Positions 17,237-62,314 of a stretch of 64,000 bases of DNA are shown in pieces. This stretch comes from Eubacteriales bacterium (GTDB lineage: Bacteria; Bacillota; Clostridia; Oscillospirales; CAG-272): assembly GCA_045533435.1 (NCBI GenBank), contig JAZSHT010000104.1, positions 1,590 through 65,589 of the forward strand, read 5' to 3'. The translations under genes were made by a program, and so were the position numbers. Position 1 is the stretch's first letter. Each line of letters opens with the position of its first letter. A model generated the notes under the pieces. The model did not search any database, had not been told where the DNA came from, and saw nothing but the letters and a program-made list of their open reading frames with translations.

Positions 17237-17328
17237 GACTTCGCTTCGCTCGTAACACCTCACTTGGCGTTGGTGAACAAGCTCCCCACGCCTGCGTGGG
17301 CTAGGCGAACCTAATTCAAGCAAAGCTT

Positions 17329-35245: not shown

Positions 35246-35263
35246 GATATAGGGTATAGGGGT
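35236..35263 (+). repeat. heptamer array, class TAGGGTA (CAGGGTA TAGGATA TAGGGTA TAGGGGT)
   Basis: Read directly. Supplies the last codons and the TAG stop (35243-35245) of the upstream CDS. Confidence 0.85.
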
Positions 35264-35383
35264 TCACTTCGCTCACAGGGGTAATTTCCTACTAAGAAGT
35301 AATAATCTCGCTACGAAACGAAGTTGAGTAATTTCGCTATTATTGCATAACACTTAACAAAGTTAAGTTCATAACTTAAAACA

Positions 35384-37070: not shown

Positions 37071-37265
37071 ATGCTTGATGTGGCAACATCGTTTAATAAC
37101 ATAAAATTAAATAGCTTTTTCTCACAAAATGCAAAATAAAGCGCTCTATTTTGCATTTTTTGCTAAAATAGATACGGTTATTTTGCACTTTTTGATATTT
37201 ATTTTGATTGTAAAGTATGGTATAATTATTACAACATAGATAATTGAGCTTTAGGGGGGCGTTAT

Positions 37266-39623: not shown

Positions 39624-39636
39624 TTCGCTTCGCTCA

Positions 39637-39671
39637 CAGCGGTCAGCCGTTAGCCGTTAGCGGTTAGCGAG
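39637..39671 (+). repeat. heptamer array, class TAGCCGT (CAGCGGT CAGCCGT TAGCCGT TAGCGGT TAGCGAG)
   Basis: Read directly. Preceded by the TAG stop (39621-39623) and the box TTCGCTTCGCTCACAG. Confidence 0.88.
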
Positions 39672-40353: not shown

Positions 40354-40388
40354 CTGACCACCGACCACTAAACACTGACCACTAAAAA
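40354..40388 (-). repeat. heptamer array, reverse orientation of class TGGTCAG (CTGACCA CCGACCA CTAAACA CTGACCA CTAAAAA)
   Basis: Read directly. Overlaps the start of a rho-independent terminator. Confidence 0.8.
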
Positions 40389-41949: not shown

Positions 41950-41983
41950 TAGTGGTCAGTGATCAGTGGTCAGTGATCAGTAG
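41950..41983 (+). repeat. heptamer array, left arm of an inverted pair (TAG TGGTCAG TGATCAG TGGTCAG TGATCAG TAG)
   Basis: Starts 2 nt after the pncB TAA. Complementary to 42073-42103. Confidence 0.92.
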
Positions 41984-42072
41984 ATTTCTTGACAATTGTA
42001 ACTAAAAAAGAATAGTAAGGATAAGCTTTTAAGCAGTACAGCTTTCGTTGTTTTTGGTCGTTTGCTAAACAT

Positions 42073-42103
42073 CTGACCACTGACCACTGACTACTGACCA
42101 CTG
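42073..42103 (-). repeat. heptamer array, right arm of an inverted pair (CTGACCA CTGACCA CTGACTA CTGACCA CTG)
   Basis: Ends 17 nt before the ymdB ATG. The reverse complement matches the left arm except at 2-3 positions. Confidence 0.92.
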
Positions 42104-42120
42104 CTTAAAGCGGATATATT

Positions 42121-44195: not shown

Positions 44196-44203
44196 TATTA
44201 TTA

Positions 44204-44376
44204 GTTATGAATCCGCTATGCGAATGTTATGAACTTGCTACGCAAGCGTTATGAATTTTGCGAAACAAAATGTTATGATATGATTGCCAAACGCCGTCAG
44301 GCTCATAACACGCGTAGCGTTCATAACGACGAAGTCTCATAACTTGTCCTGAGGCTTCGCGGAAGGCAATCATAAC
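44204..44376. repeat. zipper element: 4 x GTTATGA then 4 x TCATAAC, each separated by 8-26 nt
   Basis: GTTATGA at 44204, 44226, 44248, 44272. TCATAAC at 44303, 44321, 44337, 44370. Spacers contain mini-hairpins (CTTGC-TAC-GCAAG). Confidence 0.85.
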
Positions 44377-44377
44377 T

Positions 44378-44410
44378 GTTCTCCTTTCGGAGAACGAAAG
44401 GAGAACTATG
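44378..44410 (+). promoter_or_regulatory. alternative hairpins involving the Shine-Dalgarno sequence of the MBL gene
   Basis: GTTCTCCTTTC (44378-44388) is exactly complementary to GAAAGGAGAAC (44396-44406, the RBS). Its first 7 nt also pair with GGAGAAC (44389-44395). Confidence 0.5.
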
Positions 44411-45187: not shown

Positions 45188-45218
45188 TAGTGGTCAGTGG
45201 CTAGTGGTCAGTGGTCAG
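45188..45218 (+). repeat. heptamer array, left arm (TAG TGGTCAG TGGCTAG TGGTCAG TGGTCAG)
   Basis: Starts 6 nt after the TAA of the MBL gene. Complementary to 45330-45356. Confidence 0.92.
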
Positions 45219-45329
45219 TAAGCTTGCTATACGACTTTTACAACTAACCGCTAATTATGTACCGCTTATTAAAATGACGTTTAACGCTTATCTTTGTTTT
45301 TGTTCGTGTTCTTTGGTCTATCCGCTTGT

Positions 45330-45356
45330 CACTGACCACTGACCACTGATCACTAC
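45330..45356 (-). repeat. heptamer array, right arm (CA CTGACCA CTGACCA CTGATCA CTAC)
   Basis: Followed by AAAA and then CGACTGAAAGGAG (45361-45373) and the rsmG ATG. Confidence 0.92.
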
Positions 45357-45378
45357 AAAACGACTGAAAGGAGTTTTT

Positions 45379-52940: not shown

Positions 52941-52974
52941 CTGCTGACCGCTGACCACTGATCACTGACCACTA
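52941..52974 (-). repeat. heptamer array (reverse complement: TAG TGGTCAG TGATCAG TGGTCAG CGGTCAG CAG)
   Basis: This TAG is the stop of the minus-strand gene 52972-53847. Inverted counterpart of the array at 49133-49163. Confidence 0.92.
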
Positions 52975-53847
52975 AATATTTATTGTTTGATTTGCGTAAA
53001 TATCCACACATGTGTCGCTATTTTCAAGGATTAAGGACACAGGGGTGTCAAAAATTTCAGTTGGCAAGTCGGTTTTGAGTGTAACCTGTGTGCCGTTTTC
53101 GGTGTTTTCAACTACTAACTCGGAGTTATCACGAAGGTAAATATATTTTACCATATCGTTATATGAGCAGAGCCAAATGTTATTTTTGTTTGCTTGCTCA
53201 GCAAGGTACATACATTCAGGCAAGAATGTTTCGTACTTTTGGGCGTGGTGGGTATCCTGCTCCTTTTTAGAAAGCCAATGGTTCATTTGAACTGTCCAAC
53301 CGCCCTCGCTTATTGTCTTATCAATATTATCAATATATGGCTGTAAATCGTAAACAAAGCGAGTTGTAAATGTGCCAACATCATATAAATTCATGTTATA
53401 TGTGTCGTTAATTCTGTCATTTCCGTTTCGGTTTGAATAGTAATATTCCTTTAAAATGTTCCAACCCTCCTGTGTGCTACCGCCACCGGGAGTTACATAT
53501 GCAATTACAGGTGTGCCGTAAATTTCCTCAAGTTTTTCCTTAGTTTCCTTAGCATCCTTATGTAATTTTTCGGGGTCGGTTTCGCCATTATAGCATAAGC
53601 AATGGTCAATACTGTGTCCGCAAATATCAAAATAGCCCTCGTTAATAAGGTCCTTCCACATTTTAATTATCCATTCGTGCAAGAAGCCAACAGTTTGAGC
53701 AGAGGTAATTTTGATTTTTTGTCCTGTCTTTTCGTAAACCTCTTTTAAATTTTCGTATGCATCAAGAGTTGACTCGCGATAGCATCCATCATCAAATACA
53801 AAGCTGTATGCACTTTTTGCGTTGTTATAGTAAGTTGCAATTTTCAT
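52972..53847 (-). CDS. polysaccharide deacetylase-like protein
   Basis: 291 aa with FVFDDG and GHSIDH motifs. The TAG stop is followed, in gene orientation, by a TGGTCAG array. The 5' UTR carries the CCCTAT array plus CGACTGAAAGGAG. Confidence 0.7.
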   Translation of the reverse strand: MKIATYYNNAKSAYSFVFDDGCYRESTLDAYENLKEVYEKTGQKIKITSAQTVGFLHEWIIKMWKDLINEGYFDICGHSIDHCLCYNGETDPEKLHKDAKETKEKLEEIYGTPVIAYVTPGGGSTQEGWNILKEYYYSNRNGNDRINDTYNMNLYDVGTFTTRFVYDLQPYIDNIDKTISEGGWTVQMNHWLSKKEQDTHHAQKYETFLPECMYLAEQANKNNIWLCSYNDMVKYIYLRDNSELVVENTENGTQVTLKTDLPTEIFDTPVSLILENSDTCVDIYANQTINI

Positions 53848-53874
53848 AATTGTTTTACTCCTTTCAGTCGTAAA

Positions 53875-53910
53875 CAGGGAATAGGGTATAGGGAATAGGA
53901 GATAGGGAAA
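53875..53910 (+). repeat. heptamer array, class TAGGGTA (CAGGGAA TAGGGTA TAGGGAA TAGGAGA TAGGGAA)
   Basis: Lies in the 5' UTR of the minus-strand gene and reads CCCTAT-type in that mRNA. Adjacent to CGACTGAAAGGAG (reverse complement of 53858-53870). Confidence 0.9.
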
Positions 53911-53961
53911 TTTGCCTTACTCCTATTTCATTATAAATATTCTAACATTTTATAATATAAG

Positions 53962-53980
53962 TGTCAATAAAATATTGACA
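53962..53980. promoter_or_regulatory. palindrome TGTCAATAAAATATTGACA carrying back-to-back -35 boxes of divergent promoters
   Basis: Plus strand: TTGACA (53975-53980), 17 nt, TATTAT (53998-54003). Minus strand: TTGACA (reverse complement of 53962-53967), 17 nt, TAGAAT (reverse complement of 53939-53944). Confidence 0.6.
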
Positions 53981-54170
53981 AATAGATAAAAAAGTTGTAT
54001 TATGCTTTGGGAATAATTTTTTAACTAGCAGATGAACACTGACCAGTAATATGCAATCTTCGGTTGATTCCATACAATCCTTGACTGATTGCATATGACC
54101 TTCGGTCAATTCCATACAATGCTTTGCGTTGATTACATACACATCTGCGATGTGATTGCGACTTTGTCGC

Positions 54171-54204
54171 ATCCCTATCCCCTATCCCCTATATCCTATC
54201 CCCC
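54171..54204 (-). repeat. heptamer array, CCCTATC-type (ATCCCTA TCCCCTA TCCCCTA TATCCTA TCCCCC)
   Basis: Lies in the 5' UTR of the transporter gene. Followed by AAAG and then CGACTGAAAGGAG (54209-54221). Confidence 0.9.
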
Positions 54205-54226
54205 AAAGCGACTGAAAGGAGCGAAA

Positions 54227-55345
54227 ATGAAGACCGTATATAAATTTTTTGCAGGTCATGCTGTTTTAACGGTTGCAATGATTATTGCGCTTGTTACAAT
54301 GGTAATTGTGCCGCCTGATGTTACATACTTTGACTACATAGACTTTAAAACGCTTTTCTGTCTTTTTGCTACGCTTCTTGTGGTGTGTGCTTTAAAGAAT
54401 ATTCGCTTTTTTACCTTAATTTCAAGAAAGATTGTTCACGCTACGCCTAACCTTAGAGTATGCGTTTTGGCGCTTTTGTATATCACATTTATTGGCTCAC
54501 TTTTTATTGCCAACGATATGGCGCTTATTACATTTTTGCCCCTTGGATATTTCGTATTAAGCGACACAGGTAACCATAAATATATGGCTTGGGTGTTTGT
54601 TTTACAGAATATTGCCGCAAATTTAGGTGGAATGCTAACACCATTTGGCAATCCTCAAAACCTATATTTATACACTAAATTTAACATACCAACTCTTGAA
54701 TTTATGGGTATTATGGTATTTCCGTTTTTGCTTGCAGTTTTAATGCTAACATTATCCGTGCTATTTTTCCCAAAAACAAAAATGGAATTGTCCATAAGCG
54801 ATGATATAATTGAGTTTAAGCCTAAGCGCACCGCAATTTACATAGTGCTTTTTGCGGTATCAATCCTTGCGGTATTTTCAGTAATTCATTATTTAATTGC
54901 CGCTGTTATAATCGCAGTTGGAATTTTTATGCTTGATAAAAAAGCATTTTTAAAGGTTGACTATCCCTTGCTTTTAACATTTTTAATGTTCTTTATTTTT
55001 GCGGGAAATATGTCAAGAATAGACTTAATTCGTGATTTTATGTCGGGACTTTTAGAAAAAAACACACTTTTAGTGTCCGCTTTATCATGTCAGTTTATTT
55101 CAAATGTGCCATCCGCGGTGTTATTATCTCAGTTTACCGATAACTATAAATCACTTTTGCTTGGCGTTAATATCGGTGGCACAGGCACAATTATAGCATC
55201 CTTAGCAAGCTTAATCACATTTTCGGAGTTTTCACGCTATCAGCCTGAGAATAAAAAGAAATATTTTGGCGTTTTCACGCTTCTAAATGTAATATTTTTG
55301 ATGGTTCTCTTAATTTTTTGTGTTTTTCTTGAAAAAATTTTATAA
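54227..55345 (+). CDS. ArsB/NhaD-superfamily ion transporter (CitMHS-like permease)
   Basis: The ATG at 54227 has RBS GAAAGGAG (MKTVYKFFAG...). The track start at 54089 would translate the heptamer array and leader. Polytopic membrane protein. Confidence 0.75.
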   Translation: MKTVYKFFAGHAVLTVAMIIALVTMVIVPPDVTYFDYIDFKTLFCLFATLLVVCALKNIRFFTLISRKIVHATPNLRVCVLALLYITFIGSLFIANDMALITFLPLGYFVLSDTGNHKYMAWVFVLQNIAANLGGMLTPFGNPQNLYLYTKFNIPTLEFMGIMVFPFLLAVLMLTLSVLFFPKTKMELSISDDIIEFKPKRTAIYIVLFAVSILAVFSVIHYLIAAVIIAVGIFMLDKKAFLKVDYPLLLTFLMFFIFAGNMSRIDLIRDFMSGLLEKNTLLVSALSCQFISNVPSAVLLSQFTDNYKSLLLGVNIGGTGTIIASLASLITFSEFSRYQPENKKKYFGVFTLLNVIFLMVLLIFCVFLEKIL

Positions 55346-55491: not shown

Positions 55492-57318
55492 ATGATTAGA
55501 GACGACTTAAGAAATGTAGCAATTATTGCTCACGTTGACCACGGCAAAACAACTCTTGTTGACGGTATGCTTCAGCAAGGTGGCGCATATCACGAAAACC
55601 AAGCAACTACTGACAGAGTAATGGACTCTAACGCTCTTGAAAAGGAAAGAGGAATTACTATCCTTGCAAAAAATACTGCTATTCACTATGGCGACAAAAA
55701 AATCAATGTAATTGACACCCCAGGCCACGCTGACTTTGGCGGCGAGGTTGAAAGAATTCTTAAAATGGTTAACGGTGTTATCCTTCTTGTTGATGCAGCA
55801 GAGGGACCAATGCCACAAACAAGATTCGTTCTTCGCAAGGCTATGGAATTAAATCACAGAATTATCGTTGTTGTTAATAAGATTGACCGTCCTGATGCTC
55901 GTGTAACTGAGGTTATTGATGAGGTTTTAGAGCTTCTTATTGACTTAAATGCAACTGATGAGCAGCTTGACTCTCCAATGCTTTTCTGCTCAGGTAGAGC
56001 AGGCACAGCGTCATTCTCTCCTGATGTAGAGGGCGAAAACTTAATTCCACTTCTTGATACAATCGTAAATTACATTCCAGCTCCAGAGGGAGAAGAGGAT
56101 GAAAGCCTTCAATTACTCGTTTCATCTATTGACTATAACGAGTATGTTGGTAAAATCGGTGTAGGTAGAATTGAAAGAGGCTCACTTAAGGTAAACCAAG
56201 AGGTTACAGTATGTAACTTCCACTCAGATGAAGCTCCAAGAAGAGCAAAAATCGTTTCAATTTATCAATTTGATGGTCTTTCCCGTACACAGGTACAAAG
56301 TGCAACAGTTGGCGATATCGTATGCTTCTCAGGTGTTGAAGAGCTTTCAATCGGCGATACACTTTGCTCTGCTGGTAATGTTGAGCCACTTGAATTTGTA
56401 AAGGTTTCAGAGCCTACTCTTGAAATGACATTTGCAGTTAACGATAGCCCATTTGCAGGCAAAGAAGGTAAATTCGTAACATCCCGCCAAATTAGAGACC
56501 GCCTTTACAAGGAAACACTTAAGGATGTATCTCTCCGTGTAAGCGATGGCGACACTACCGACTCATTTAGAGTTGCAGGTAGAGGCGAAATGCACTTATC
56601 AATCCTTATTGAAACAATGCGCCGTGAGGGCTTTGAGCTTTGCTGCTCAACTCCAAGAGTGCTTTATAAAACAATTGATGGCATTTTACATGAGCCAATG
56701 GAAAGAGTTTCTATTGATGTACCGGCAGAGAGCGCAGGCGCAGTTATTCAAAAGCTTAGCGCAAGAAAGGGCGAGCTTTTAGAAATGGACCCAACAGGCT
56801 CAAGAACTAAGCTTGAATATATTATTCCATCAAGATGCTTACTTGGTTACAGAAACGAGTTTATGACAGATACAAAGGGCGAGGGCATTTTAAATACACT
56901 CTTTGATGGCTATCAACCATTCAAGGGAGAGGTTGTAACAAGATTTACAGGCTCACTTATCGCATCCGAAACAGGCGAAGCAACATCATACGGTCTATTT
57001 AAGACACAAGACAGAGGCGCTATGTTTATCGGCGTTCAAACTCCTGTTTATGAGGGAATGATTGTTGGCGAATGTCCAAAGATGGAGGATATCGTTCTTA
57101 ATGTTTGCCAAAAGAAGCACTTAACTGCTATTCGTTCAAAGGGCGCAGATGAGGCTTTAATTCTCGTTCCACCAAAGCAATTATCCCTTGAGCAAGCTAT
57201 TGAGTATATTGCGGATGATGAGCTTATTGAGGTAACACCTAAGTCAATTAGATTAAGAAAGAAAATTCTTGATACTGCATTAAGACTTAAGGCGCAAGCG
57301 AAATTAAAAAAGCAGTGA
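55492..57318 (+). CDS. typA: translational GTPase TypA/BipA
   Basis: The ATG at 55492 has RBS AAAGGAG ([24 protein letters not shown]). The TGA stop lies inside the first TGATCAG unit of an array. Confidence 0.95.
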
Positions 57319-57350
57319 TCAGTGGTCAGTGGTCAGTGTTCAGCAGCTAG
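57313..57350 (+). repeat. heptamer array (CAG TGATCAG TGGTCAG TGGTCAG TGTTCAG CAG CTAG)
   Basis: The typA TGA stop (57316-57318) is part of the first unit. Confidence 0.9.
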
Positions 57351-57506: not shown

Positions 57507-58754
57507 ATGTTTTCAGAAAAGATATTAAATATAGCATCTGAGGCGGAAAGGGAGCTTGCTCCGATTTTTGCTAAGATTGATGAAATTTCATTTAAAAATA
57601 CACAAAGAGTGCTTGAAAGCTTTAAGGAATTTAAGGTTGCCGAGAGTATGTTTGCAGGCACAACTGGTTATGGCTACGATGATATTGGCAGAGACACACT
57701 TGATAAAATTTATGCCGATGTTTTCGGAGCAGAAAGTGCATTTGTAAGACACTCAATAGCCAACGGCACAAGCGCACTTACAATCGGATTGTTTGGACTT
57801 TTAAGACCAAATGATGTGCTTTTATCAGTTACAAATCAACCATATGATACTCTTTGCGAGGTAATCGGCATTAACGGTGCAAACGGAGATGGCTCACTTG
57901 CGGATTTTGGTGTAAAATACGATCAGGTTGACTTTAAAAACGAGGAAATTGACTTTGAGGGAATTGAGAAAAAGCTCAATGAATATGGAGATAGCGTTAA
58001 GGTTGTTTTCATTCAACGCTCAAAGGGATATTTAAATAGACCGACACTTACAATAGACCAAATTGGCGAAATTTGCGATTTTGTTCACAAAAGAAGCAAA
58101 TCGTATGTGGTTGTTGACAACTGCTATGGCGAATTTTGCGAGGATAGAGAGCCTTGCCATGTGGGAGCAGATATGATAATCGGCTCACTTATTAAAAATC
58201 CAGGTGGCGGAATTGCCGAAAGCGGTGGATATATTGCAGGCACAAAAAGAGCAGTTGAGTTAGCTTCCTACCGTTTAACCTCTGCCGGCACAGGATGCGA
58301 GGTAGGTGCATCTTTAGGTCAAAACAGAAATATGTTCAAGGGATTTTTCTTAGCACCTCACATTGTGGCTCAGGCTATTAAAACTGCACATTTTGCCGCA
58401 TATGTGTTTGAAAAATTAGGCTTTGATGTATCTCCAAGGTATAACGAAATGCGCTCGGATATTATCCAAACAATTAAGTTTGGATACGCTGATGGTCTTA
58501 TTAAATTCTGCCAAGGAATTCAAAGCGCATCCCCTGTTGACTCTTATGTAACTCCTGTGCCATGGGCAATGCCAGGCTATCAGGATGAGGTAATTATGGC
58601 AGCAGGCGCATTTACTCAAGGCTCATCAATAGAAATTTCAGCAGACGGTCCTATTCGCATACCATATACCGCATTTTTACAAGGCGGTCTAACCTTTGAA
58701 AGCGGAAAAATCGCAATATTAACAGCAGCTTCGCTGCTAGGGGATAGGATATAG
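57507..58754 (+). CDS. YnbB / aluminium-resistance family PLP-dependent (Met gamma-lyase-like) protein
   Basis: 415 aa with the typical FAGTTGYGYDDIGRDTLD N-terminal region. The last 4-5 codons and the TAG stop are encoded by the TAGGGGA/TAGGATA array. Confidence 0.85.
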   Translation: MFSEKILNIASEAERELAPIFAKIDEISFKNTQRVLESFKEFKVAESMFAGTTGYGYDDIGRDTLDKIYADVFGAESAFVRHSIANGTSALTIGLFGLLRPNDVLLSVTNQPYDTLCEVIGINGANGDGSLADFGVKYDQVDFKNEEIDFEGIEKKLNEYGDSVKVVFIQRSKGYLNRPTLTIDQIGEICDFVHKRSKSYVVVDNCYGEFCEDREPCHVGADMIIGSLIKNPGGGIAESGGYIAGTKRAVELASYRLTSAGTGCEVGASLGQNRNMFKGFFLAPHIVAQAIKTAHFAAYVFEKLGFDVSPRYNEMRSDIIQTIKFGYADGLIKFCQGIQSASPVDSYVTPVPWAMPGYQDEVIMAAGAFTQGSSIEISADGPIRIPYTAFLQGGLTFESGKIAILTAASLLGDRI

Positions 58755-58772
58755 GATATAGGGGATAGGGAT
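58738..58772 (+). repeat. heptamer array (TAGGGGA TAGGATA TAGGATA TAGGGGA TAGGGAT)
   Basis: Spans the end of the ynbB-like CDS (stop TAG at 58752-58754) and the entire 18-nt spacer up to the rlmH ATG at 58773. Confidence 0.92.
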
Positions 58773-59255
58773 ATGTTGAATATCAAAATTATAGCCACAG
58801 GCGATGTAAAGGAAGCATATTGGCAAAACGCCATTAAGGAATATCAAAAAAGACTTGGCGCTTGGTGCAAAATTGAGGAAATTATTTTAAAGGAAGAAAG
58901 ACTTCCCGATAATCCCACACAATCACAAATTGACAAAGCCCTTGAATGTGAGGAAAAGCGAATTTTAGAAAAGCTTTCCTCAAAATCATATGTGATTGCA
59001 ATGTGCGTTGAGGGTAAGCAGTTATCAAGCGAGGAGCTTGCCTCAAAGATAACCGATATAACAAATTTAGGCAAAAGCGAGATAGTTTTTATCATCGGCT
59101 CATCCTTTGGTCTATCCAAAAAGGTCAAGGAAGTGTCTGATTTTAAGCTCTCAATCTCAAAATTAACCTTCCCACATCAATTATTAAGAGTTATTTTACA
59201 CGAAACGATTTATAGGTCATTAAGTATTATTTATGGTACGAAGTACCATAAATAA
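58773..59255 (+). CDS. rlmH: 23S rRNA (pseudouridine1915-N3)-methyltransferase
   Basis: 160 aa in the SPOUT family (IGSSFGLS...LSISKLTFPHQL). The start codon directly follows the heptamer array. Confidence 0.92.
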   Translation: MLNIKIIATGDVKEAYWQNAIKEYQKRLGAWCKIEEIILKEERLPDNPTQSQIDKALECEEKRILEKLSSKSYVIAMCVEGKQLSSEELASKITDITNLGKSEIVFIIGSSFGLSKKVKEVSDFKLSISKLTFPHQLLRVILHETIYRSLSIIYGTKYHK

Positions 59256-62135: not shown

Positions 62136-62314
62136 GGTATCTCCTTTAAATAATTTTCCTTATGTATAAATTATATCATTTTCCTTTATAAAAATAAATA
62201 GCACCAAACGCAAAATAAGGGCGTTTATTTTGCAAAAAGTGCAAAATATACGGCGGTATTTCTCAAAACTGAATTTTTCTTGACAAAAACATATTATTTA
62301 TGTATAATTAAATT

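Follow-up and report, generated by a model that had tools for sequence, protein, structure and literature searches.

A 13-nt block, CGACTGAAAGGAG, that contains a strong Shine-Dalgarno (SD) sequence recurs in three 5′ leaders of a 64,000-nt stretch of an Eubacteriales genome (contig JAZSHT010000104.1; the whole stretch is hereafter the window), each time behind an array of tandem 7-nt units, and we found that this pairing of block and array extends to many phyla and to tailed phages, that arrays are exchanged as modules next to the block, and that the block covaries at two positions. Judged from the sequences compared, we see an even chance that block and array belong to a non-autonomous, DNA-structure-dependent mobile intergenic cassette bringing its own stop codons and ribosome site. 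The window has a G+C content of 36%, and its relatives are labelled uncultured Clostridia.

An exact-match search placed CGACTGAAAGGAG at 45361-45373 (+), 53858-53870 (−) and 54209-54221 (+), and no further site was found in the window with up to two mismatches allowed. Downstream lie the start codons of rsmG (TIGR00138; ATG 45379, +), of a CitMHS-family transporter gene (PF03600; ATG 54227, +) and of a divergent deacetylase-like gene (52972-53847, minus strand; ATG 53847), the last identified through an ortholog with a weak match to PF01522 (polysaccharide deacetylase). No protein identical to this RsmG was on record. Upstream in the sense direction, every copy follows a G-poor period-7 array, for which Tandem Repeats Finder (TRF) gave CACTGAC ×3.6 at 45330-45354 before the rsmG 13-mer, CCCTATC ×4.4 at 54173-54203 (+) in the transporter leader, and AGGGAAT ×4.9 on the plus strand at 53876-53909, which is CCCTATC-type on the sense (minus) strand, in the leader of the deacetylase-like gene. 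The first-pass annotation of this DNA had described three identical 13-mer ribosome sites, each downstream of an array, and both searches confirmed this. Its distances held only in part: the linkers between array and 13-mer measure 4-6 nt (acaaaa, gttta and caaag) instead of a constant 4 nt, and the 13-mer stands 5 nt before the ATG of rsmG and of the transporter gene and 10 nt before that of the deacetylase-like gene, where 5-9 nt had been given.

Among the 22 window genes with an AAGGAG SD and a nearby start codon, an upstream period-7 array was found only at the three in which cgactga precedes the SD, with period-7 scores of 0.83-0.94, compared with none of the other 19 (≤0.67), a split having a probability of 1/1540. 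This indicates that the 13-mer is not a generic ribosome-site context in the window. Altogether, TRF detected about 18 period-7 arrays there, each of 3.6-6.1 head-to-tail 7-nt units and mainly of three classes (AGTGGTC, AGGGTAT/ATAGGGG and AGCCGTT). A strand rule applies to 17 of 18: immediately behind or across a stop codon it is the purine/G-rich strand that is sense, and immediately ahead of a start codon it is the G-poor one.

Between the deacetylase-like and CitMHS genes, at 53.9-54.2 kb, the inverted repeat noticed in the first pass was borne out at the DNA level, with array arms (53877-53908 and 54172-54203) that are 88% complementary and motif arms (53853-53870 and 54209-54226) that are 89% complementary. 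Its interpretation as two modules pointing outward from a shared palindromic promoter region gained support from divergent sigma-70-like promoters predicted at 53939-54003, namely TTGACA-17-TATTAT on the plus strand (11/12 matches; TTGACA at 53975, −10 box ending at 54003) and TTGACA-17-TG-TAGAAT on the minus strand (11/12 matches; TTGACA at 53967, −10 box ending at 53939), whose −35 boxes together make the palindrome TGTCAATAAAATATTGACA at 53962-53980. The divergent promoter is kept in all eight genomes compared (L120, L121, L122 and L253-257 in our numbering of loci), including relatives without arrays, and array and 13-mer are unpaired in the centroid structure of both predicted 5′ leaders. 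At the rsmG junction, a purine-strand array of the AGTGGTC class (class A; 45189-45219, +) starts 7 nt past the stop codon of a metallo-β-lactamase (MBL)-fold gene and forms the 5′ arm of an intercistronic hairpin, the CACTGAC array (45330-45354, +) being its 3′ arm; the predicted stem measures 31 bp, the loop is 110 nt long, and the 13-mer stays unpaired. Of the two pairings suggested earlier for the C-rich tracts, the one with a G-rich array was thus recovered at rsmG, whereas the one with the SD was not predicted in any of the three modules, in all of which the SD is predicted to be free.

Outside the window, one genome per species was scanned with the pattern 13-mer + N4-10 + TG, and among the 124 matches listed, most of them chance occurrences, at least 23 had a period-7 array directly upstream. 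These array-positive matches came from Halopseudomonas salina (an isolate), Gallionellaceae, alpha- and delta-proteobacteria, Oscillospiraceae/Clostridia, Selenomonadales, Saccharimonas, Meiothermus, Chloroflexia, Pyrinomonadaceae and Bacteroidales. Hosts of the module belong to at least seven phyla (Pseudomonadota, Bacillota, Patescibacteria, Deinococcota, Chloroflexota, Acidobacteriota and Bacteroidota), and tailed-phage structural operons carry it too. A metagenome scan (CTG + 13-mer + C) gave arrays at 51 of 125 instances, and across all fetched loci arrays were found at 42% of the motif-bearing strong SDs as against 3.6% of other strong SDs. The preferential tie of the 13-mer to arrays thus holds beyond the window, and the possibility raised beforehand, that it is merely a common ribosome-site context with no link to arrays, failed in the window as in every public collection scanned.

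In the usual layout an upstream stop codon is followed by a purine-rich array, a loop, a complementary G-poor array, 2-4 nt, the 13-mer, 4-10 nt and the ATG. In the pooled set of 76 array-positive cases, an ATG lies 4-12 nt downstream of the motif in 65, and the array before the motif is poor in G (12.8% G; C exceeds G in 66). Conservation around the anchor is limited to the 13-mer, the following C and a weak preceding CTG/CAG, and the genes downstream are unrelated, including those for IscU, Frr, NrdB, an OsmC-like protein, ribosomal proteins S3 and S8 and a carboxyltransferase. In Saccharimonas, a ribosomal-protein operon on a 5.4-kb contig is densely packed but for the three modules it contains. 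Phage contigs have 3-10 modules each, inside head and tail gene operons; one viral contig has homologous cassettes of ~110 nt at ~10 consecutive junctions of its structural operon, and another has three modules, located after major head protein and head-tail adaptor genes. A BLAST search of one phage module region against cultured phages gave no match. Array G+C correlates only partially with host G+C (slope 0.46), which is not decisive for a foreign origin. Where arrays are missing, the 13-mer can occupy the loop of a short hairpin, for example ggctggctg-CGACTGAAAGGAG-cagccag (L163, L172, L237 and L245; also L005, L053, L062, L090 and L104), a context that recurs in several metagenome contigs and other phyla. 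Five metagenome contigs (L142, L157, L222, L233 and L243) share a conserved G+C-rich leader containing cgccctctcggcgacttagggcgggttgaacttccgccgggaggcgccacctattacaatg and ending in ctgCGACTGAAAGGAGcaggccATGttcatcc, which may be an unrelated structured 5′ leader with the same ribosome site.

Turnover was seen in syntenic loci of relatives (L120: 91% identical). The spacer between the MBL-fold gene and rsmG is 7 nt in L122, compared with a 190-nt cassette in the window that ends exactly at a conserved tttttATG. Class-A cassettes with homologous interiors occupy different loci, preceding rsmG and YmdB in the window but mnmG in L120, and the loop of the rsmG cassette (45220-45329) is homologous to those of the other class-A copies. 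On the transporter side of the orthologous CitMHS site we found class B (AGGGTAT) with the 13-mer (window and L120), class C with the 13-mer (L257), class B with CGAGGTACGAGCG (L256), class C with CGAGGTACGAGCG (L253-255) and neither array nor block (L121). All four combinations of array class and ribosome-site block hence exist, with the linker AAAG retained throughout; on the deacetylase side, L257 carries class C with CGACCAAAGGGAG. Similarly, the 13-mer is present at 7/7 Gallionellaceae-like iscS→iscU junctions, together with four array classes that do not sort by iscU identity; even the two closest sequences (89% identical) differ in class. The proposal that a constant flank adjoins a replaceable array is supported and much widened by these two sites. 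Array copy number also varies between relatives, and among the proteins encoded around 67 positive loci no family recurs except for those of the isc operon. In L120 (4505-4635), a G+C-rich nested palindrome (gtaggggaggggttatccctccc ... gggagggataacccctcccctac) stands at the MBL→rsmG junction in place of the heptamer cassette, and this site seems prone to gaining hairpin elements of more than one kind.

Array-adjacent variants that were found independently of the search string (CGACCGAAGGGAG, CGACCAAAGGGAG and CGACTGGAAGGAG) generalise the motif to CGACYRAARGGAG. To examine covariation of positions 5 and 9, viral contigs were scanned with four motif versions, each followed by N4-10 and ATG, and compared by Fisher tests. 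Arrays accompanied 29/111 matches of the T/A form CGACTGAAAGGAG and 17/110 of the C/G form CGACCGAAGGGAG, compared with 2/105 of the C/A form CGACCGAAAGGAG and 0/59 of the T/G form CGACTGAAGGGAG (P values from 1e-7 to 7e-4). SD strength is not the cause of this gap, because each intermediate retains the SD core of one paired form, and the T/A and C/G forms are both present within single phage contigs. Since only these two forms are linked to arrays, and the wobble form is not, positions 5 and 9 act as a Watson-Crick pair, which implies that the motif would fold as a mini stem-loop with the pairs C4-G10 and Y5-R9 and a GAA, AAA or GGA triloop, its 3′ strand being the SD. Pairing of CGACU with the 16S 3′ end was dismissed by reasoning, as only GAAAGGAG pairs and the dependency between positions 5 and 9 stays unexplained by it. 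An upstream open reading frame ending at the TGA of the motif was rejected as well, the TGA frame being no more open than the other two, and as for a conserved motif at the left end, or CAGTCG mirroring CGACTG, it is confined to one array class (L087/L240) and so not general.

The proposed fold resembles GCGNAGC, or d(GCGAAGC), a very stable GAA-loop DNA mini-hairpin (PMC13037366), in that the C5/G9 form of the motif has a C-GAA-G core closed by a further C-G pair; the commoner T5/A9 form, in contrast, has a weaker closing pair. Descriptions of that mini-hairpin treat it as a physico-chemical motif of a small number of phage origins and promoters (PMC13037366), not as part of a repeated genomic element. 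Canonical GCGAAGC lies beside arrays at 39624 and 35263 in the window, in L076 and in L253. The window also holds TTCGCTTCGCTCAC, the reverse complement of GTGAGCGAAGCGAA, with the GCGAAGC mini-hairpin at 39624-39637, 35263-35276 and 17240-17253, the first two directly adjoining purine-strand arrays; with up to three mismatches it is matched 10 times there, against 3.3 expected. In Bacteroidales (L076), related gagcgaagcgaac blocks lie beside the 13-mer.

A significantly complementary upstream partner was found for about one third of the array-positive modules versus 4% of controls, which indicates two module types, a hairpin type and an array-only type; the divergent deacetylase/CitMHS pair is of the latter. 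Fold and duplex energies separated positives from negatives only after normalisation to shuffles. An upstream stop codon lies within −7 to +6 nt of the 5′ arm in ~17/40 cases and is often supplied by the array. In the 42 modules for which an inverted partner is clear (arms of median 26.5 nt, loops of median 34 nt), arm positions comprised 1000 Watson-Crick pairs, 36 G:T-type, 38 A:C-type and 90 transversion mismatches. The G:U excess that selection on the sense RNA would produce is therefore absent from the arms (36 vs 38, in a test whose 74 transition mismatches give it modest power), and RNA-level selection on them is unsupported. Together with the missing wobble form of the motif, this points to a constraint or origin of arms and motif that would be at the DNA level, or on both strands.

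Based on these patterns, small non-autonomous intergenic cassettes may form a family in which the 13-mer is the conserved end on the right-hand side. A complete cassette would begin with a purine-rich array at, or supplying, the upstream stop codon, continue with a variable loop of 12-182 nt and a complementary G-poor array, and end with a 2-6 nt linker, CGACYRAARGGAG and a 4-10 nt spacer before the start codon of the next gene; a half cassette, such as those at 53.9-54.2 kb, would consist of the G-poor array and the motif in a 5′ leader. Cassettes might spread from one intergenic site to another by copy-and-replace, in a process that would recognise DNA hairpins, either single-stranded or as cruciforms, with catalysis in trans by an enzyme and with phages as possible vehicles. 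They would be tolerated or even useful, since they would supply what an intergenic insertion destroys, namely stop codons at the 5′ end and an accessible strong SD at the right distance at the 3′ end; the long stem would draw the upstream stop near the downstream start, and on the mRNA it may also serve as a processing or stability hairpin.

Several observations weigh against this mobile cassette. We found no transposase in the flanks searched and, at the sites compared, no target-site duplication and no precise pair of empty and filled sites at near-identical sequence, and mobility is therefore argued from comparative patterns only; at the rsmG and mnmG sites in particular no target-site duplication is visible, with comparators only 77-91% identical blurring the boundaries. 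A clear complementary partner exists for only about a third of the array-positive modules, and in Bacteroidales the 13-mer is located between arrays and not beside a start codon. The covariation of positions 5 and 9, which has two main allelic states, could partly reflect descent from two master copies, and the modest power of the mismatch test has to be reckoned with as well. Finally, the saturation of a phage operon and the placement in ribosomal-protein and isc operons could equally fit selection for host or phage function.

This last point leads to a possible but doubtful alternative, an RNA device selected by host or phage, in which the array stem is an intercistronic processing or stability hairpin, cut by RNase III or blocking 3′ exonucleases in the manner of T7 R sites, the G-poor array and motif form an unstructured strong-SD leader that boosts or couples translation, and copies spread because they are useful. 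In keeping with such a device are modules that follow the genes for major head and major tail proteins, modules that fill almost all junctions of one phage operon, modules inside compact ribosomal-protein and isc operons, the predicted 31-bp stem with a free SD before rsmG, the unpaired G-poor leaders of both divergent 5′ untranslated regions, and the transcription reported for the heptamer arrays of Xanthomonas (PMC4692102). However, neither the arm mismatches nor the array-linked forms of the motif carry the G:U signature, convergent selection alone would hardly yield one identical 13-mer in at least seven phyla, and close relatives lack the module at the same genes. The mobile cassette and the RNA device are not mutually exclusive.

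Binding by a trans-acting factor is improbable. Here the motif hairpin, the heptamers or both would be bound by a protein (cold-shock-domain, S1-like or CsrA-like) or a small RNA and define a post-transcriptional regulon, for which speak the 7-nt periodicity, the single-stranded G-poor arrays, a conserved structured 13-mer exposing GGA, and the proposal of S1, Csp and CsrA for TAACTGA repeats (PMC4679880). But the heptamers differ wholly between loci and are freely swapped, which speaks against a factor that reads the array sequence specifically, the downstream genes share no function, and no candidate factor is common to all phyla involved. Plain replication-slippage microsatellites beside a common strong ribosome site, with a role in phase variation or as G-quadruplexes or i-motifs of GGG units, are very unlikely and largely refuted by the highly non-random association of motif and array within and across genomes: in many prokaryotes heptamers are indeed said to outnumber all other long simple-sequence repeats (Mrazek 2007, as cited in PMC4679880), copy number does vary between relatives, and class B (AGGGTAT) fits the G3N4 pattern like the Xanthomonas/Nostoc repeats (PMC4692102), but classes without G runs behave alike, the arrays lie upstream of the SD so that unit changes leave the SD-ATG spacing unaltered, the genes concerned are housekeeping genes, and whole classes are exchanged, not merely unit numbers.

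Described families were compared in turn. At the gathering threshold, Rfam gave only one tRNA in the window and one in 18 module-bearing loci, with nothing credible at permissive E-values, and for want of a match a described RNA family (riboswitch, leader or ribozyme) was rejected. An intrinsic terminator was rejected too, the 3′ arm being followed by CGACTGAAAGGAG with no T tract; no terminator-like site was found in 53800-54300.

The short tandemly repeated repetitive (STRR) sequences of cyanobacteria have been catalogued for decades. Heptamers are further described in Xanthomonas and Nostoc (GGGAATC and GGGGA(C/T)T), for which Rehm et al. reported the same strand rule (PMC4692102), and as TAACTGA repeats in Beggiatoaceae, cyanobacteria and Bacteroidetes (PMC4679880). 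The window arrays have both marks of STRR and long simple-sequence repeats, at least three head-to-tail 7-nt units and an intergenic strand bias. Like the known arrays (STRR, PMC4692102, PMC4679880), they are short tandem 7-nt units between genes, with the G-rich strand sense within 50 nt after or over a stop, the C-rich strand sense just before starts, frequent convergent pairs able to form stem-loops, and a patchy phylogeny that suggests horizontal spread, with no mechanism or function assigned. Unlike them, the present arrays are coupled to the covarying CGACYRAARGGAG, no conserved flanking motif being reported in PMC4679880 or PMC4692102; array classes are exchanged at fixed sites; and the hosts include Clostridia, Patescibacteria, Deinococcota, Chloroflexota, Acidobacteriota and tailed phages. 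In addition, the Beggiatoaceae repeats mostly replace the SD, whereas the arrays here precede a strong SD. What the literature already covers (PMC4679880, PMC4692102) is thus the existence of heptamer arrays with their strand rule and convergent pairs and the puzzle of how they are distributed, while the linked covarying motif, its occurrence across phyla and phages and the modular exchange of arrays appear to be new in the part of the literature that was searchable. Within that part, the 13-mer string turned up only in unrelated eukaryotic papers, and nothing relevant was found on miniature transposable elements with inverted repeats (MITEs) combined with SD sequences and tandem repeats.

The MITE pattern is recognisable in that terminal inverted repeats are present (the 88% arms at 53877/54172, the 31-bp stem at 45189/45330 and the 42 modules with arms), as are several homologous copies at unrelated loci and strain polymorphism (class-A copies; filled and empty sites). 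REP/BIME elements with their RAYT enzymes, ERIC, Correia and RUP/BOX are short non-coding, co-transcribed intergenic hairpin elements that are multicopy and strain-polymorphic. Such intergenic palindromic repeats and MITEs affect mRNA stability and processing and occasionally provide outward promoters, and REP hairpins are read by an HUH enzyme in trans. The cassettes resemble them as short, non-coding, hairpin-forming and multicopy units between genes with presence/absence differences; those elements, however, are lineage-specific with fixed arms, while here the heptamer arms are interchangeable and a constant 13-nt ribosome-site block stands on one side. REP/BIME units are imperfect palindromes of 20-40 nt with a conserved 5′ GTAG, in genomes that have a RAYT gene. 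With no GTAG signature in the module sequences and tandem heptamers as arms, the modules fall outside REP/BIME on sequence. Integron attC sites are recombined as folded single-stranded DNA and are likewise structure-defined, sequence-variable imperfect inverted repeats between a stop and the next gene. The modules are nevertheless not attC sites, as they have no RYYYAAC/GTTRRRY core sites and no integrase/attI context, their two ends differ (stop codon and array versus CGACYRAARGGAG), and they are flanked by housekeeping genes in conserved synteny. T7 RNase III sites and the PeSL 'mobile regulatory cassettes' of T4-type phages are repeated units of hairpin plus expression signal at many junctions, which leave a protective 3′ hairpin upstream, make the ribosome site downstream accessible and probably serve to shuffle modules. 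The cassettes share with them the repetition of hairpin and expression signal at many junctions of one phage genome, and the predicted stems of at least 20 bp between cistrons have an RNase III-type anatomy; those units, however, belong to one phage group only, while the present motif is common to cellular genomes of many phyla.

The cassettes matter because heptamer arrays have long been catalogued with no function or mode of spread (Xanthomonas/Nostoc, PMC4692102; Beggiatoaceae, PMC4679880). With a motif that stays the same from Clostridia to Saccharimonas, Meiothermus and tailed phages, all members become searchable, and its link to arrays shows that these are swapped as modules and points to a mechanism in which DNA hairpins are recognised. 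Provided that they move and bring ribosome sites with them, the cassettes would offer a general route for rewriting operon junctions and 5′ leaders and a natural, host-independent translation-initiation part for synthetic biology. Only tentatively do we go further and envisage a domain-wide, phage-carried 'plug-in' cassette, in which a fixed 13-nt block of hairpin and ribosome site would be combined with exchangeable arms read as DNA structure by a broadly distributed enzyme. If true, this would add to the non-autonomous mobile elements a new class, one by which translation initiation and operon junctions are rewired, and it would explain the long-puzzling heptamer repeats of cyanobacteria, Xanthomonas, Beggiatoaceae and others.

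Further arrays of the window lie near these modules or share their classes. A second class-A cassette precedes the YmdB-like gene (41951-42120, +) and consists of an AGTGGTC array, a loop with a promoter-like site, a CTGACCA array and the degenerate motif cttaaagcgga. A purine-strand class-A array (52944-52973, −) abuts the stop codon of the deacetylase-like gene, where the transcript that carries the 53858 module has its 3′ end. On the plus strand, a purine-strand class-B array (ATAGGGG/ATAGGAT; 58744-58774) is class-complementary to the 54173 array on the same strand 4.5 kb upstream, and it provides both the TAG stop of an MGL-like gene and the ATG of rlmH. At 57313-57343, the TGA stop of typA lies inside the first CAGTGAT unit of an array, and array-free relatives end in GGC TAA. 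The sole array that breaks the strand rule (40359-40386) is a C-strand class-A array (CACCGACCACTAAACACTGACCACTAAA) after the stop of a plus-strand gene, with a terminator-like hairpin and T tract directly behind it.

The structured part of the transporter leader (54010-54172, +), recognised from sequence and fold, contains UUCG-loop hairpins and the repeated TTCCATACAAT. Within it, 54040-54170 holds two units, each made of a UUCG-loop hairpin (caatcttcggttg or gaccttcggtc) followed by TTCCATACAAT, with more small hairpins after them; the leader interior of L120 is wholly unlike that of the window and holds a GTAGGAT array hairpin instead. In 'spaced' arrays (window 44196-44407; L120 5733-6137 and 14480-14679; L253 2560-2872), a heptamer (GTTATGA, AGTGAAG, AATTCAT or ATATCGA) alternates with small palindromic spacers, and complementary heptamers follow, likewise spaced. 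Those of the window and of L120 5733-6137 end in a second conserved ribosome-site block, GTTCTCCTTTCGG(G)AGAACGAAAGGAGAAC, for which two mutually exclusive folds are predicted, one with the SD free and one with it paired. Finally, intergenic tandem repeats with 31-32-nt units and ~1.9 copies each were found at 37133-37194 (AAAATAGAAACGCTTATTTTGCACTTTTTGCT) and 62210-62268 (GCAAAATAACGGCGTGTATTTCGCAAAAAGT).

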